Below, one piece after another: positions 2,768 to 61,936 of a DNA stretch of 64,000 bases. Position 1 is the first letter of the stretch. Each line of letters begins with the position of its first letter. The notes below the pieces were generated by a model that did no database searches, was not told the origin of the DNA, and worked only from the letters and a program-made list of their open reading frames with translations. The DNA comes from Gammaproteobacteria bacterium (GTDB lineage Bacteria > Pseudomonadota > Gammaproteobacteria > JAUZRS01). The position numbers and the translations under genes are program-made. The stretch is taken from positions 67,210-131,209 of the forward strand of contig JAUZSP010000007.1 of NCBI GenBank assembly GCA_030949385.1, given 5' to 3'.

Positions 2768-3028
2768 TTATGCCGCTATTTCATGATCAACATCCCAACC
2801 AGGAAAGACTAAAACTGCTGGGTGACATTTTAATGCTCTGGCCAATACTTTCGCTCTTTCCACGCCTAGTTTTATTTTATCGTGCTCGATGGCTGAAAGC
2901 GTTGATTGCGGTATGCCCGTTATTGAAGATAAATCGTTTTGACTTAACTCCTGTAGCTCACGGATAATTTTTACAGACTCGCCAATAGAAACATCTGTTC
3001 TTTTTTTTGCTTCTTTATAGTCTGTCAT
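2768..3028 (-). CDS. XRE/HigA-type HTH antitoxin
   Basis: 86 aa from ATG 3028; HTH LSQNDLSSITGIPQSTLSAIE; lies directly downstream of a RelE-like gene. Confidence 0.8.
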   Translation of the reverse strand: MTDYKEAKKRTDVSIGESVKIIRELQELSQNDLSSITGIPQSTLSAIEHDKIKLGVERAKVLARALKCHPAVLVFPGWDVDHEIAA

Positions 3029-3029
3029 G

Positions 3030-3311
3030 TTATTTCCTCTGGTAGTCATGTGCTGTGACCTTGATTACGTTTACAAACAGTTGATCATTTTCAATTTTGT
3101 AGATAATGCGATATTGAATATTCAGGCGTGAAGATCGATAGCCTTTCCATTCACCGCGCAATGCTTCATCTTTAAAACCCTTAATCTGTTTAAGACCTGA
3201 AGGGCCTGATATTATTACGATATCTTTCCATTTCTCATATCGTTTAAGGATGTCGATAGGTAACGATCTTAGTCCTTTCAATGCACTTTTGTGCTCATAT
3301 ATTTTCCACAT
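3030..3311 (-). CDS. RelE/YoeB/HigB-superfamily mRNA interferase toxin
   Basis: 93 aa from ATG 3311; DEALRGEWKGYRSSRLNIQYRIIY is typical of the RelE fold; toxin-before-antitoxin (higBA) order; AT-rich. Confidence 0.8.
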   Translation of the reverse strand: MWKIYEHKSALKGLRSLPIDILKRYEKWKDIVIISGPSGLKQIKGFKDEALRGEWKGYRSSRLNIQYRIIYKIENDQLFVNVIKVTAHDYQRK

Positions 3312-3321
3312 ACTAAATAGT

Positions 3322-3349
3322 AGCATATATACCATATATGGTATGTCAA
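3322..3349 (-). promoter_or_regulatory. Sigma70 promoter of the TA operon overlapped by a 16-bp palindromic operator
   Basis: Minus strand TTGACA (3349-3344)-N16-TATGCT (3327-3322); perfect palindrome ATACCATATATGGTAT at 3329-3344. Confidence 0.65.
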
Positions 3350-18780: not shown

Positions 18781-19874
18781 GTGAACAGCCCAAAATACGG
18801 GTGATGCTGATGAACGATTCGCTCAATATGGGCGGCGCTGAAACCATGATTTTCAGCCTCATCTGTGATCTGGATGCCCAACGCATCACACCCTACGCCC
18901 TCTCCATGTCCGTTGATGATGCCCTCAAACAGACCTTTTTAGACACAGGCATCCCCGTCTATGAGTGCCCGAAAGGATCCGGCTTAGATTGGAAACTGCC
19001 GCTGCGCATCGCCAAAATTTTACGCCGCGAAAAAATCGAAATCCTACACACCCACAACTTTGCCTCATGGCTCTGGGGCGGGCTGGCCAGCCTCTTTGCC
19101 CCACGTTGTAAATTGGTACATACACAGCACTCCAACATCGTCCTCAACCGCCTACCACCCAAACCGCTGCGCGCCTTGCTGGCACGGATCAGCAAAAAAG
19201 TGGTGACGGTCAGCGACCCCGTGGCCGAGCATCTGCAACGGGACGGTTTTGCCCCCGCCAACAAACTGCAAGTGATCTACAACGGCATCCCTCTCAAACC
19301 CGAGCAGCACGCCAAAGACCCTGATTATCGTCATCTGGCCATAGTGGCGCGTTTGGTGCCAGTGAAAAACCACGAATTATTGATTCGCAGCTTTGCCCAA
19401 GCCTGCCAACTGCAAAACAACATCAAACTGGACATTCTTGGCGATGGCCCCTTGCGAGATGAACTACAGCACCTCAGCAACAGCCTCGGCATGGACAGCA
19501 AAATCAAGTTTTGGGGCGAAGTCCCCAACGCCCGCGCTCTGATGACCAGCTTTGATGCCTTTGTGCTTAGCTCCCTCAGCGAAGGGCTTTCCATCTCCAT
19601 TTTGGAAGCCCTCGCCGCCGGTCTGCCGGTAATCGCCACCGATGTGGGTGGCAATGGCACCTTGGTACAGCATCAAAAAAATGGCTTACTGGTGCCGTCA
19701 GAAGATCAAGATCAACTGGCGGCGGCCATCAATCGCCTCTTAGGTGATAAAAAATTGCGCGAACAGATGAGCAAAAAAAGTCTGCACATCGTCACCGAAG
19801 GCTTTTCCAATCAGACCATGGTTGATCATTACCAACAGATTTACGCCCACGCTTTGGGACGAACCACGTTGTAA
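18777..19874 (+). CDS. Glycosyltransferase family 4
   Basis: GGAE N-terminal loop, ARLVPVKNH, EGLSISILE (EX7E), ATDVGG. Confidence 0.9.
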   Translation: MSEQPKIRVMLMNDSLNMGGAETMIFSLICDLDAQRITPYALSMSVDDALKQTFLDTGIPVYECPKGSGLDWKLPLRIAKILRREKIEILHTHNFASWLWGGLASLFAPRCKLVHTQHSNIVLNRLPPKPLRALLARISKKVVTVSDPVAEHLQRDGFAPANKLQVIYNGIPLKPEQHAKDPDYRHLAIVARLVPVKNHELLIRSFAQACQLQNNIKLDILGDGPLRDELQHLSNSLGMDSKIKFWGEVPNARALMTSFDAFVLSSLSEGLSISILEALAAGLPVIATDVGGNGTLVQHQKNGLLVPSEDQDQLAAAINRLLGDKKLREQMSKKSLHIVTEGFSNQTMVDHYQQIYAHALGRTTL

Positions 19875-22231: not shown

Positions 22232-22663
22232 CTATTCCCGCCTACGCGGGAATTGACGACCGGCCAAATCATCCAACTCCTTCTGCTCTTTTTTATCCGC
22301 CTGTTGCCTCTCACCCGCCACTAAATTCTGTTGATAGGTGTCAATCACACTCTGTTTTTGATGAGCTGCTCGCCACAACAACAACTGCTGCTGATATTTT
22401 AATTCAAAATCAACAATCACCTGCTGTTGAATCTCAACGGTTTGGCTGATTTTAGCCACAAAACCTTGGTACGACTGAAACTGGTTTACCGAACAATCCG
22501 TAGGTCGTTGGGTGACGTATTCATCACGATAATCCAATAATTGTTGTAACTGGGTTTGTTGTTGAAACAGCGCGTTTTTGGCTTCTGCCAACGCACATTC
22601 GGCCTGCTTTTCTTTCTGTATATAAATCGACTGAATGCCCTGAATACGCTTTGATGCCTGCAC
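22232..22663 (-). CDS. fliJ: Flagellar export protein FliJ
   Basis: QLQQLLDYRDEY, FQSYQGFVAKI, EQKELDDLA; GTG start preceded by GGAG; follows fliI. Confidence 0.9.
   Translation of the reverse strand: MQASKRIQGIQSIYIQKEKQAECALAEAKNALFQQQTQLQQLLDYRDEYVTQRPTDCSVNQFQSYQGFVAKISQTVEIQQQVIVDFELKYQQQLLLWRAAHQKQSVIDTYQQNLVAGERQQADKKEQKELDDLAGRQFPRRRE
22234..22253. repeat. ATTCCC-N8-GGGAAT palindrome (dRS3/REP-like) inside the fliJ 3' end
   Basis: ATTCCCGC-CTAC-GCGGGAAT, 8-bp perfect stem; encodes the terminal FPRRRE of FliJ. Confidence 0.55.
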
Positions 22664-22673
22664 ACGTCACTCC
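22656..22673. repeat. 18-bp direct repeat, copy 1 (contains the fliJ RBS and GTG start)
   Basis: gcctgcacacgtcactcc, identical to 23610-23627; extends to 22 bp with one mismatch. Confidence 0.9.
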
Positions 22674-22712
22674 ATTAGCTTCATTTTGTCCGCGTGTAAC
22701 ACCTTGTTATGA
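22674..22712 (-). other. Putative truncated (left half) integron attC site
   Basis: Minus strand TCATAAC-AAGGT-GTTACACGCGGAC-AAAATGAAGCT; the TAA stop of the upstream gene lies in the RYYYAAC-like inverse core. Confidence 0.5.
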
Positions 22713-22955
22713 AATTTCTTGCCCATGACTCCATAGCTCATACTCACTAATATCAATACTGTTATTCCAAGCTACGGCATAACCACCCTGCTCTACTTGA
22801 ACCGCCTTGAATAAAGCTTGATTTTTTAATGGAGAAAACATCTCTTTAGCCAGCAATGGAGTTATATCATATTTTCTTTTATGATTATTATTAAACTCAA
22901 CGATCAAGGTATGATCATCAATAGCTTTTACCGATTTTATTTTTGGATATGTCAT
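22707..22955 (-). CDS. DUF2442-like protein (putative antitoxin)
   Basis: 82 aa; IKSVKAIDDHTLIVEFNN, F..V.V..GG..VAWNNSIDI..YELW pattern. Confidence 0.75.
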   Translation of the reverse strand: MTYPKIKSVKAIDDHTLIVEFNNNHKRKYDITPLLAKEMFSPLKNQALFKAVQVEQGGYAVAWNNSIDISEYELWSHGQEIS

Positions 22956-22957
22956 TT

Positions 22958-23206
22958 TTAATTCAATGGTTGTAGTTTGTGGAATTCCTGACTATCCCAC
23001 ATCTGTTTCAATTCATGCTTGTTAATGGTAGCCCACTCAACAACCAGTTTTTTGGCTCTTTTTGGTAAATCTCCTTCTATCATTTCAAGGGTGTTTATGC
23101 TGAACAAGCCAACATACTCACCATAAACCGCATGAAAATGTGGTGGCGGATGATCTCCAAAAAATAACTTTATGACTATTCCGTAAAATCTTGCTATTTC
23201 AGGCAT
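22958..23206 (-). CDS. DUF4160-like protein (putative toxin)
   Basis: 82 aa; MPEIARFYGIVI.LF..DHPPPHFHA.YG, G.LP.RA..LV.EWA pattern. Confidence 0.8.
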   Translation of the reverse strand: MPEIARFYGIVIKLFFGDHPPPHFHAVYGEYVGLFSINTLEMIEGDLPKRAKKLVVEWATINKHELKQMWDSQEFHKLQPLN

Positions 23207-23609
23207 GTTGCTTCCTCATATTTTTTTCTGTAACGACTGCAATAATTGGCGTTTTATAAAAATATTTCTGAATGGACGACCCACAGCACCCACTCCGCCT
23301 CTGTAATAAATAGCCAATTCTTAAAGGCCAACCACCTCTTCTGTAAGCAGAAACATATACATCAAATAGAACAATATTACCATAAAAAATACGGCCATTG
23401 GCCATTATCAGTAAAATCAAAATAATCTATTAAAACCTAATATTGCACCCTGAGTGAAAAAACATGCAAACAATTCCCCTCCCCTGGAGAGGTGACTCAA
23501 AAAAGTGGGGGCTAATTTCTGCAACCAAGGGAAATAATGAGGAACGTTCAGCTAAGCCTCACAATTAAGTAGCACGAAAGCCTTGTCAAGGCATAACATC
23601 CATTTAGGA

Positions 23610-23627
23610 GCCTGCACACGTCACTCC
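23610..23627. repeat. 18-bp direct repeat, copy 2 (immediately after the fliI stop)
   Basis: gcctgcacacgtcactcc, identical to 22656-22673. Confidence 0.9.
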
Positions 23628-23628
23628 G

Positions 23629-24987
23629 TTATTGTGCCTCCGGCAGGGCTTGTTTTAACTCCGCCAAAGACTCGACCAAGGTTACTTTTTCTGACATATT
23701 TTGCGCCAAAAAAGCCATCAACCTTGGATGCTGTTCAATCGCTTCATCAATGCTCGGATCGCTGCCTTTTTGATAAGCCCCCACATTGATTAAATCTTCA
23801 TTTTGCAGGTATTTTGAGTACATTTTCCGAAACCGCTGCGCGCTCTGCTGATGATCTTGATCGGTAATCGCTGTCATACAACGGCTAATAGAAGCCTCAA
23901 TGTCAATGGCAGGAAAATGCGCCTGCTCGGCCAGCCTCCTTGCCAACACAATGTGACCATCCAAAATGGCGCGCGCCGAATCGGCAATGGGGTCATTTTG
24001 ATCATCGCCCTCCACCAGCACGGTATAAAACGCGGTAATCGAACCGCCTTGATCACCGCCGTTACCGGCGCGCTCCACCAACTGCGGCAGTTTGGCAAAC
24101 ACCGACGGCGGATAACCTTTGGTGGCTGGAGGTTCACCAATGGAGAGGGCGATTTCACGCTGCGCTTGGGCAAAACGGGTCAACGAATCCATCAACAACA
24201 GCACGTTTTTGCCTTGATCACGAAAATATTCCGCAATGCTGTTGGCCAACAGCGAACCGTGAATGCGCATCAAAGGCGACGTGTCCGCTGGAGCCGCCAC
24301 CACCACGGCTTTTTTCATCCCTTCGTCGCCTAAAATCTCTTGGACAAACTCTTTTACCTCGCGCCCTCGTTCACCGATCAACCCCACCACCACCACATCG
24401 GCGCTGGTATGCCGAGTCATCATGCCAAGCAAAACACTTTTACCCACCCCGCTGCCTGCAAACAACCCCAAACGCTGACCTCTGCCAACGCTGATCAGGC
24501 TGTTGATCGCTCGCACGCCCACATCCAATACATCCCGAATCGGTTCACGACTTAAGGGGTTAATGGCCTTGGCATCCAGCGAAACAAACGCCTCTGCTTT
24601 GATGCTGCCTTTCAGATCCAGAGGCTGGCCGTGACCGTCCAACACCCGCCCTAAAAGCGATTCACCAACGGCAATTTTATACACCCCCTGATAGGGAATC
24701 ACGCGCGCATTGGGTACCAAACCTTGCAATGAGGTGGTGGGCATTAAAAACAGTTTGTCGCCACTAAAGCCCACCACCTCCGCTTCAATCGTCACGCCAC
24801 CAGGAGCCACAACCTGACACCGAGCACCGATGGGGGCATGACAGCCCACCGCCTCCAAGGTCAAACCCACCATGCGGGTTAATATCCCCTCCACTGGCAA
24901 GGTCGGCAGCGGCGCTAAATGAGTCCGAATGGCTTTTATCCGCAATGGCCAGCGATAACCATCGGCTAAAACCGATTCATCGACCAT
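23629..24987 (-). CDS. fliI: Flagellar export ATPase FliI
   Basis: GLFAGSGVGKS Walker A, LIGERGREV, MDSLTRFAQAQREI, GEPPATKGYPPS. Confidence 0.97.
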   Translation of the reverse strand: MVDESVLADGYRWPLRIKAIRTHLAPLPTLPVEGILTRMVGLTLEAVGCHAPIGARCQVVAPGGVTIEAEVVGFSGDKLFLMPTTSLQGLVPNARVIPYQGVYKIAVGESLLGRVLDGHGQPLDLKGSIKAEAFVSLDAKAINPLSREPIRDVLDVGVRAINSLISVGRGQRLGLFAGSGVGKSVLLGMMTRHTSADVVVVGLIGERGREVKEFVQEILGDEGMKKAVVVAAPADTSPLMRIHGSLLANSIAEYFRDQGKNVLLLMDSLTRFAQAQREIALSIGEPPATKGYPPSVFAKLPQLVERAGNGGDQGGSITAFYTVLVEGDDQNDPIADSARAILDGHIVLARRLAEQAHFPAIDIEASISRCMTAITDQDHQQSAQRFRKMYSKYLQNEDLINVGAYQKGSDPSIDEAIEQHPRLMAFLAQNMSEKVTLVESLAELKQALPEAQ

Positions 24988-60643: not shown

Positions 60644-61936
60644 TTAGCCAAACGTATCAGAGGTGATATTTTTGAACCAGCTGTGTGCATAACCCACTTC
60701 ACGCTTGCGGAAAGCAGGAGTTGCATCCATAGGTGTCAGGCCACCAGAGCCCTTAACCTTAATGATTTTACCTTCTGCACCGAGACGGTAAACCATTGCA
60801 ACAGAAATACCCCAATCTTCGCCAGGCACACTGTAACAGGTGTTAACGTAAGAAGGCGTAGGCGCATCATTGCCATTCAACATAGCAACGATGGCTGCTG
60901 CACAGACTTTGGCTTCAGAACTGGCCGCATAACCGGATTTCGGCAGAGGGCTAGCAACTGAGGAGTCACCAATGACGTGGACATTTTTGTGAATGGTAGA
61001 CTCGAACGTCTTCTGATTCACAGGACACCAACCTTTATCGTTGGTCAAGCCCGCAGCAAAGGCGATTTTACCGGCTTTCTGAGCAGGGATAACGTTTAAT
61101 ACGTCAGCCTTATGATCAGTAAACTCAGTAAAGGCCATGCGCTTGTCGGCATCAACACGATTAACCAGACCGTCGTTGGCTTTAGAAACCCACTCGATCA
61201 TGCTGTTGTCGGTACCGTAACCGTACATTGCTTTCCAAGACTGAACAAACAGGCCTTTCTTGGAGAACTTATCTTTAGAATCCAAAATCAAGATTTTTGA
61301 TTTTGGTTTGTGTTTCTTCAGATAATGTGCGATTTGACCGGCACGCTCGTATGGCCCAGGAGGACAACGGAAAGGGTTAGGAGGAGGTGCAATAATCACC
61401 GTACCGCCGTCTTTCATTGCTTCCAGCTGTTTGCGCAGAATGATGGTTTGTGAACCGGCTTTCCAAGCATGTGGCACTTTTTCAGCAGCAGCCTCATCGT
61501 AGCCTTCAATGGTATCCCATTTGAAGTCCACACCAGGAGAAACGATGCAATGATCGTAAGCGAAAGATTTTCCGCTTTTGGTGTTCACTTTTTGTGCTTT
61601 AGCATCAATACCGGTTACCCAGTCATTGACCACTTTAACACCGTGAGCTGCTAAACCACTGTAACCGAACTTGATTGAATCCATGCTACGGCCACCGCCC
61701 AGCACTTCATTACTCATGAAACAGGTGTAGTAATGTTTGTTGGCTTCGATCAGGGTCACTTCGATTGAAGAATCACCCATGCGAATGTATTTAGCAGCTG
61801 TTGCGCCACCCATACCACCACCAATTATCACAACCCGCTTGGTTGCACCCAAACTCAAGCCAGGAGCACCCAGCGCGCCAACGGCGGCGGCAGCACCTGT
61901 AACCTTGAGGAAATTACGACGTGTAAATTGACTCAT
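60644..61936 (-). CDS. fccB: Flavocytochrome c sulfide dehydrogenase, flavoprotein subunit
   Basis: Tat signal TRRNFLK; [14 protein letters not shown]; CFMSN; [10 protein letters not shown]; PKSG; NTCYS. Confidence 0.93.

Follow-up and report, generated by a model that had tools for sequence, protein, structure and literature searches.

The question raised by this locus is how a module of about 1 kb came to stand between fliI and fliJ, two adjoining genes of a flagellar operon, and left both of them intact. It lies in the window analyzed here, a 64,000 nucleotide (nt) stretch of a Gammaproteobacteria bacterium (assembly GCA_030949385.1, contig JAUZSP010000007.1, positions 67,210 to 131,209); coordinates below are those of the window unless a locus is named, and the genes, repeats and other oriented features of the region are all on its minus strand. 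The insert carries a putative toxin-antitoxin gene pair, is bracketed by two copies of a 22 nt direct repeat, and is foreign in composition, its GC content being 30–40% and that of its flanks 45–58%. Comparison with relatives makes it a true insertion with target duplication that has spread horizontally since its two known host lineages parted, and its cargo clearly appears to descend from integron gene cassettes.

The flagellar export ATPase gene fliI (23629–24987; Pfam ATP-synt_ab 292 bits and T3SS_ATPase_C 98 bits) and fliJ (22232–22663; 143 amino acids; Pfam FliJ 68 bits and TIGR02473 52.2 bits, above its cut-off) are complete, and fliJ is the operon's last gene, with a convergent glycosyltransferase gene next to it. 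The upstream repeat copy (TAACGGAGTGACGTGTGCAGGC, 23610–23631) and the downstream copy (TAATGGAGTGACGTGTGCAGGC, 22656–22677) both have the form GCCTGCACACGTCACTCC[A/G]TTA, are identical at 21 of 22 positions and start 954 nt apart. On the coding strand they read TAA-(C/T)-GGAG-TGACGT-GTG-CAG-GC, the single mismatch being C in the upstream and T in the downstream copy. The TAA of the upstream copy (23629–23631) is the fliI stop codon, and the downstream copy supplies the working Shine-Dalgarno sequence (GGAG) and the GTG start codon of fliJ. The upstream Shine-Dalgarno sequence and GTG (at 23617) open a 21-codon frame (MQAPKWMLCLDKAFVLLNCEA, 23552–23617) that ends with TAG; they probably drive synthesis of a 21-residue peptide, which matches no family. 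The exact 18-mer core of the repeat occurs at only these two places in the 64 kb, also when two mismatches are tolerated (0.01 chance matches are expected), and two copies were found in none of 100 shuffled sequences. An earlier sequence-only reading of the window had placed the repeat at 22656 and 23610, had recognized in it the fliI stop and the fliJ ribosome binding site and start, and had assigned the 21-codon frame to its upstream and the fliJ start to its downstream copy; all of this is confirmed.

Relatives for comparison of the junction came from a genome scan (two) and from a protein collection (one more); the collection holds only three FliJ relatives, and hence there was no closer empty site to compare. 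Loci L002, L014 and L015–L017, which are more distantly related to the window than L001 (below), have no insert and a fliI-fliJ gap of 10 nt. The junction is CACAATAAGGGGTGAGTGGTGCAGGCATCAAAACGG in L002 and L015–L017, and the single-copy counterpart of the repeat is CACAATAAGGGGTGAGTGGTGCAGGCATC in L002 and CACAATAAGGAGTGAGCGGTGCGGGCATC in L014. L002, of which L015–L017 are near-identical population copies, is about 80% identical to the window in nucleotide sequence and collinear with it over about 11 kb except for the insert, and the FliJ of L014 is 75% identical to that of the window. Because these relatives have one copy of the repeat and no insert, the insert is a true insertion with target duplication. 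The repeat is also present (22/22) in the independent assembly L001, which speaks against an assembly artefact. These junctions thus uphold the core of the sequence-only reading, which had proposed the insertion of a recombinase-free toxin-antitoxin cassette that duplicated the fliJ ribosome binding site and start.

L001 is a contig of a metagenome-assembled genome (MAG) from an Arctic Mid-Ocean Ridge sample; it shares the insert and its site with the window, and has a perfect repeat and an identical 21-codon frame. The whole 7871 nt alignment of the window with L001 contains 493 differences (6.3%). The flanks differ at 488 of 6895 positions (7.1%) and, at the four-fold sites of fliI, fliJ and two glycosyltransferase genes, at 108 of 579 (18.7%), but the block from repeat to repeat differs at only 5 of 976 (binomial P 1.5e-24). 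Within that block the two toxin-antitoxin genes show no difference in 498 nt or at their 50 four-fold sites (binomial P 3e-5 for the latter), the non-coding leader has four differences (about 1%), and one more lies in a repeat. The nearest flank differences, at 23647 and 22649, lie beyond the repeats by 16 nt and 7 nt, a spacing no greater than the flank rate predicts, and no co-transferred flank is visible. Since the divergence of the insert is far lower than that of the flanks, the insert entered one or both of the lineages only after their split, and it has spread horizontally. That the insert is far younger than the split of its hosts goes beyond the sequence-only reading, as do the attC remnants described below.

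The first gene of the insert (22958–23206) encodes an 82 amino acid DUF4160 protein (Pfam PF13711, 70.7 bits, cut-off 23), and the second, 2 nt further downstream (22707–22955), an 82 amino acid DUF2442 protein (Pfam PF10387, 47.4 bits). Against the NCBIfam model toxin_DhiT the first protein scores 90.8 bits, below the equivalog cut-off of 100, and so by sequence it is a DhiT homologue and not a certified equivalog. For DhiTA of Dickeya dadantii 3937, toxicity, neutralization by the partner, co-transcription and autoregulation have been demonstrated (PMC8198452); the DUF4160/DUF2442 pair is cited as the DhiTA type II system in PMC12065111, and a Thermus plasmid pair boosts plasmid persistence (PMC12724237). 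The window pair shares with the Dickeya system the same two Pfam domains, the toxin-first order, a tiny intergenic gap and similar gene sizes, and is accordingly predicted to belong to this experimentally validated family, so that what had been called "TA-like" DUF4160/DUF2442 genes can now be given a family name. It differs from the Dickeya pair in the toxin's sub-equivalog score, in being known here from sequence alone, and in that its subfamily spans many phyla at 80–95% protein identity and is often integron-borne. This very mobile family has 2557 toxin homologues, and the best ones, 80–95% identical and spread across phyla, come from MAGs that bear the labels Aminicenantes, Desulfobacterales, Thiomargarita, Marithrix and Chromatiales. 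Only the contig of L001 has the exact DUF4160 protein on record, and the window FliJ is absent from the records. Sequence comparison found no relative of solved structure for either protein, and PADLOC has no model for them.

The surroundings of the two genes point to an origin in integrons. Upstream of the toxin gene, GTTACAG (23228–23234) is a putative relic integron core site (R' box, GTTRRRY); GTCGTTACAG stands 28 nt before the toxin ATG (21 nt edge to edge), and GTTACAG aligns with R' boxes that lie 25–40 nt before the ATG in L005, L013, L018–L021, L024, L026, L030, L033, L048 and L064. It would mark the 5' boundary of the ancestral gene cassette, and 375 nt more of inserted DNA lie upstream of it. 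At the other end, CATAACAAGGTGTTACACGCGGAC (22688–22711) overlaps the antitoxin stop codon and aligns as the 5' half of an attC site (R'' and L'' boxes), the 3' half being missing. BLAST alignments to L030 and L024 extend through this half site, and structured repeats downstream of the antitoxin gene in L018, L019, L020, L026, L030, L033 and L048 align through their first half with the same tail (22711–22688). In those relatives the structured repeats recur every 0.5–1.3 kb, they fold as imperfect hairpins (z about -4.4), and their consensus structure shows covariation in 8 of 13 stem pairs; they are best read as attC sites.

A covariance model of these sites (R1), built from 12 repeats with 17 modelled pairs and covering one attC subfamily, finds 23 sites in 12 of 85 DhiT loci, a lower bound, all of them oriented as the genes. 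Its best match in the window is the tail of the insert, which at E 6.9 is not significant, and the scan of the 64 kb gave no other site and no intact attC. The 3' end of the insert thus has the 5' half of an attC only, not the complete R''-L''...L'-R' arrangement, and this tail does not fold as a hairpin (z +0.68). No attC array, attI or intI neighbours the insert among the open reading frames (ORFs) of the 64 kb window that were tested; its neighbours are fliI and fliJ. Two other constructions of the end were tried: TAACAAGGTGTTAC as a "collapsed" attC is ruled out, as the alignment has an intact 5' half, and an attC rebuilt across the junction of a hypothetical circle formed by both ends does not fold (z -0.3). 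The window copy therefore appears to keep the two marks of integron toxin-antitoxin cassettes, an R'' box over the antitoxin stop and, at 25–40 nt from the toxin ATG on its upstream side, an R' site, but unlike them its attC stops after the 5' half, it is in a flagellar operon with no array, attI or intI in the 64 kb, and it is flanked by duplicated host sequence instead of attC. Descent of the cargo from integron gene cassettes appears clear from these alignments. Among the relatives, the DhiT/DhiA pairs of L018, L019, L020, L026, L030, L033, L048, L064, L065, L085, L093 and L094 are integron gene cassettes within attC-like arrays.

The remainder of the insert is an AT-rich, non-coding leader of about 375 nt (23235–23609). 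In BLAST comparisons with about 95 DhiT loci, the insert has homology only at its positions 394–944, that is the genes with about 30 nt upstream and about 20 nt downstream, and the leader has no homologue in those loci or in plasmids, phages, viral or metagenome contigs. A leader 24-mer had no match in metagenome contigs, nor did a 28-mer across the left junction in viral contigs; blastn with the whole insert recovered from plasmids no more than part of a DUF4160 gene, in one of Sarcina, and had no match in phages. Rfam matches to the leader are at chance level, and its fold is no more stable than that of shuffled sequence (z +0.58). Near its left end the palindrome GCCTTGACAAGGC with its TTGACA, pointed out in the sequence-only reading, is indeed present at 23580–23592, but a promoter role for it gains no support, as the promoter scan found no -10 partner. 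Thirteen nt inside the same end, the heptamer GTTATGC (23591–23597) is a speculative candidate for an attC R' core site. TGTTATG at the left end and the R'' box CATAACA at the right end are exact reverse complements (chance about 0.005), the sole end-to-end complementarity found in the insert; this pairing is above chance, and any meaning given to it is speculative. Between the attC remnant and the downstream repeat are 10 nt (AAAATGAAGC, 22678–22687) to which no origin is assigned. There are no recombinase-like ORFs within the insert, as had been proposed, and no integrase or recombinase among 30 other window ORFs examined in a non-exhaustive survey. Its ends have no terminal inverted repeats (best local score 7, matched or exceeded by 39% of shuffles); this and the duplication of 22 bp, against 2–14 bp, rule out a transposon, insertion sequence or miniature inverted-repeat transposable element.

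The insert probably, though by no means certainly, arose when a fragment of a broken cassette was captured at a staggered break, without a recombinase, and the gaps were filled in. The fragment, about 930 bp long, would have come from an integron-type cassette array and comprised about 375 nt of DNA from upstream, the DhiT/DhiA cassette in full and the initial 24 nt of its attC. It would have entered the chromosome at a staggered break within the 11 nt that separate the fliI stop from the fliJ start, and fill-in would have duplicated 22 bp of target (TAA-N-GGAG-N6-GTG-CAG-GC). Such a duplication would leave fliI its stop codon and give fliJ an unaltered copy of its native Shine-Dalgarno sequence and GTG, with the upstream copy starting the 21-codon ORF. 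The insert would later have spread between related lineages, and post-segregational killing by the toxin-antitoxin pair would most likely shield it from replacement by empty-site alleles. The block of low divergence could then have arisen in either of two ways, by introgression through homologous recombination, after which the linked flanks were replaced in exchanges whose tracts ended at the heterology, or by repeat-delimited transfer. Recombinase-independent capture is favored because the insert terminates in a truncated attC and lacks defined ends of the transposon or att type.

Among described architectures, insertion with long target duplication comes closest; it is known from restriction-modification addiction modules that have no mobility gene and whose flanking repeat is single-copy in the empty site (Nobusato et al. 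2000; PMC2853133); the class has been delimited by duplications of >30 bp, and 46 to about 420 bp have been observed (Furuta, Abe and Kobayashi 2010, PMC2853133). Like those modules, the insert is a presumed addiction module without a mobility gene, has direct repeats that are single-copy at the empty site, and has a GC content unlike that of its host. It differs in that its duplication of 22 bp falls between that class and att-type identity blocks, in that its cargo is a toxin-antitoxin pair and not a restriction-modification system, so that self-inflicted DNA breakage cannot be assumed, and in that the duplicated segment is exactly a translation-initiation region. Several points weigh against capture of an array fragment. 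Only two sequences bear the insert, and both are metagenome-derived contigs; the array fragment is recognized by short remnants, motifs of 7 nt and 24 nt; no donor array or second leader copy was found in the collections searched; and the duplication is under the >30 bp threshold (PMC2853133) and of a length seen in att identity blocks. Nor does a single illegitimate event by itself account for the sharp edge of low divergence at the repeats in two lineages; these sharp edges therefore require a second step, either erosion of the flanks by recombination or repeat-delimited transfer.

The best surviving alternative, which we nevertheless consider unlikely, is a non-autonomous integrative element moved by a recombinase encoded elsewhere. 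The 22 bp would then be an attP/attB identity block, the element would have integrated independently in both lineages, and it would carry its own fliJ initiation region, regenerated on integration as tRNA islands restore the 3' end of a tRNA gene. This would account for the same insert, site and repeat in two lineages about 7% apart and for the fall in identity right outside the repeats; the repeat length is typical of att identity blocks, which the >30 bp cut-off of Furuta et al. excludes (PMC2853133), and the C/T mismatch in the window could be element versus host allele. The insert indeed resembles cis-mobilizable elements and tRNA-restoring islands in its direct repeats of about 20 bp, its single attB-like site, the lack of an integrase in cis and the restoration of a host function by the duplicated segment. 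Unlike them, it has no cognate integrase or parent element among the insert and window ORFs tested, its target is an intergenic Shine-Dalgarno sequence and start codon and not a tRNA gene, and its ends resemble a broken attC. The repeat and adjoining insert ends are also without inverted core-type binding sites, the right end is 10 nt from a truncated attC, as expected of a broken fragment and not of an evolved att arm, and the collections searched yielded no further copy of the element. The att-like anatomy of the repeats is, moreover, common to other mechanisms too.

We give rather little credence to a recombinase-free micro-element, namely an integron toxin-antitoxin cassette, freed by breakage in the attC hairpin, that moves between genomes as a repeat-bounded module with its copy of the fliJ initiation region, each integration being site-specific, doing the operon no harm and being enforced by addiction. 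In a wider form of this idea, DhiTA cassettes might colonize operon junctions by duplicating the Shine-Dalgarno sequence and start codon of the downstream gene. Still less probable is a route in which a single insertion was followed by recombination between the repeats, release of a circle with one repeat copy, and Campbell-style re-integration at the 22 bp site of a related genome by host homologous recombination. It explains why the transferred unit is bounded by repeats and requires no dedicated enzyme, and the conserved target that it demands is at hand in the Shine-Dalgarno and start region. The 22 bp of homology are, however, at or below the minimum for efficient RecA-dependent recombination, and a non-replicating circle of 0.95 kb, itself not directly evidenced, has no obvious route between cells.

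It is very doubtful that only one lineage truly carries the insert and that the other contig was joined to it in assembly or binning through shared junction bases. L001 is a metagenome-assembled contig, the window contig is not on record in the collection queried, and assembly with small k-mers could be misled by identical stretches as short as those at the two junctions (37 nt and 24 nt). The insert copies nonetheless differ from each other (four leader differences and one in the repeat), the contigs differ throughout their flanks, and assembly at large k needs real reads that span flank single nucleotide polymorphisms and insert; the insertion and its target duplication are in any case real in at least one lineage. 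Placement of the cassette at a secondary, non-attI chromosomal site by an integron integrase (IntI) has scarcely any probability left. Such insertions are known, and the cargo clearly appears to be of cassette descent, but the IntI reaction joins at G|TT, retains a complete attC and duplicates no target, whereas here the attC has no 3' half, the junctions are not at GTT and 22 bp are duplicated; the failure of the hypothetical circle junction to fold as attC and the lack of any attC or intI among the window sequences tested agree with this, and the anatomy largely refutes this route. Vertical inheritance of an old insertion by both lineages, which would give the same site and structure in each, is excluded by the divergence contrast (5/976 in the insert against 7.1% in the flanks, 0/50 against 18.7% at four-fold sites, and only four differences in the leader).

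The insertion may also bear on how the operon is expressed. Both neighboring genes are intact because the duplication covers exactly the stop codon, the Shine-Dalgarno sequence and the start codon. fliJ retains its GGAG, 6 nt spacer and GTG, and it now lies 44 nt from the antitoxin stop, where it formerly lay 11 nt from the fliI stop. The promoter scan reported two terminator-like hairpins in the leader, on its coding strand (23476–23492 and 23391–23405). Given these hairpins and the autorepression of DhiTA promoters (PMC8198452), fliJ may no longer be coupled to fliI and may be transcribed in part from the toxin-antitoxin promoter. If the insert terminates fliI transcripts and fliJ falls under an autoregulated toxin-antitoxin promoter, flagellar export would be tied to toxin-antitoxin regulation. 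This uncoupling, excision by way of the repeats and stabilization by addiction, all three suggested in the sequence-only reading, are plausible inferences only.

The toxin-antitoxin family, the integron cassette pool and the poorly understood mode of insertion are already known; here the duplication exactly preserves a translation-initiation region. What is new is the direct evidence of recent horizontal spread and the apparent integron ancestry of the insert. The locus is a clean and datable example of a presumed selfish addiction module that settled in an essential operon without breaking either neighboring gene. It joins three areas, integron cassettes as a reservoir of toxin-antitoxin genes, insertion with target duplication, which has so far been described for restriction-modification systems, and the horizontal spread of a 1 kb module across a divergence of about 7%. 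Its importance would rise if the unit were an actively moving, site-specific, recombinase-free element.

Direct repeats also occur around other members of the family. Exact flanking repeats of 15–73 nt are present in 14 of 74 DhiT loci (the shuffle maximum is 14 nt), some of which are attC and others unexplained. Near-perfect direct repeats of 22–134 nt that the R1 model does not recognize as attC tightly bracket the DhiT/DhiA pairs of L082 (1493–1557/2246–2310), L039 (172–216/898–942), L077 (361–386/933–958), L031 (338–371/946–979), L050 (2197–2218/3538–3559) and L051 (84–217/1477–1610); candidate explanations are target duplications, other structured repeats and remnants of tandem copies. 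In the window itself a second AT-rich pair (35–39% GC; 2768–3335, minus strand) lies between amidohydrolase and GGDEF response-regulator genes, and has a HigBA-like order, with a weakly YoeB/RelE-like toxin (101 amino acids, 21.3 bits, below the cut-off) upstream of an HTH_3 protein (93 amino acids). No direct repeats flank this pair, and target duplication is therefore not general for toxin-antitoxin insertions in this genome.

Another case of toxin-antitoxin genes in an operon-like cluster is L004 (2247–6535), where two tandem DUF4160/DUF2442 pairs, a HicB-like gene and a PIN-domain gene are all inside a type VI secretion cluster, flanked by its vgrG, DUF2169 and PAAR-toxin genes. In L005–L012 (JGI samples 33000240xx–33000241xx) one identical DhiT protein is encoded on at least 24 contigs and is always followed by a HEPN/nucleotidyltransferase pair; the upstream neighbors vary, with integrase fragments among them, and bear 12 nt tandem repeats (CGTCCCGCAAGC). 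We note that 19 viral or proviral contigs in IMG/VR (L100–L118) encode DhiT relatives that are up to 76% identical, and phages are a possible vehicle for this toxin-antitoxin family.

Outside the insert, the alignment of the window with L001 has a spike of divergence at 19600–19800 (48 differences in 200 nt and one indel), where two glycosyltransferase genes of the cluster convergent with fliJ meet; it may reflect recombination or a hypervariable spot in a flagellin-glycosylation-like island. The window also encodes a flavocytochrome c sulfide dehydrogenase flavoprotein (60644–61936), several GGDEF proteins, an MCP and a large flagellar cluster. The host is probably a motile sulfur-oxidizing gammaproteobacterium; the nearest relative is a gammaproteobacterial MAG from the Arctic Mid-Ocean Ridge.

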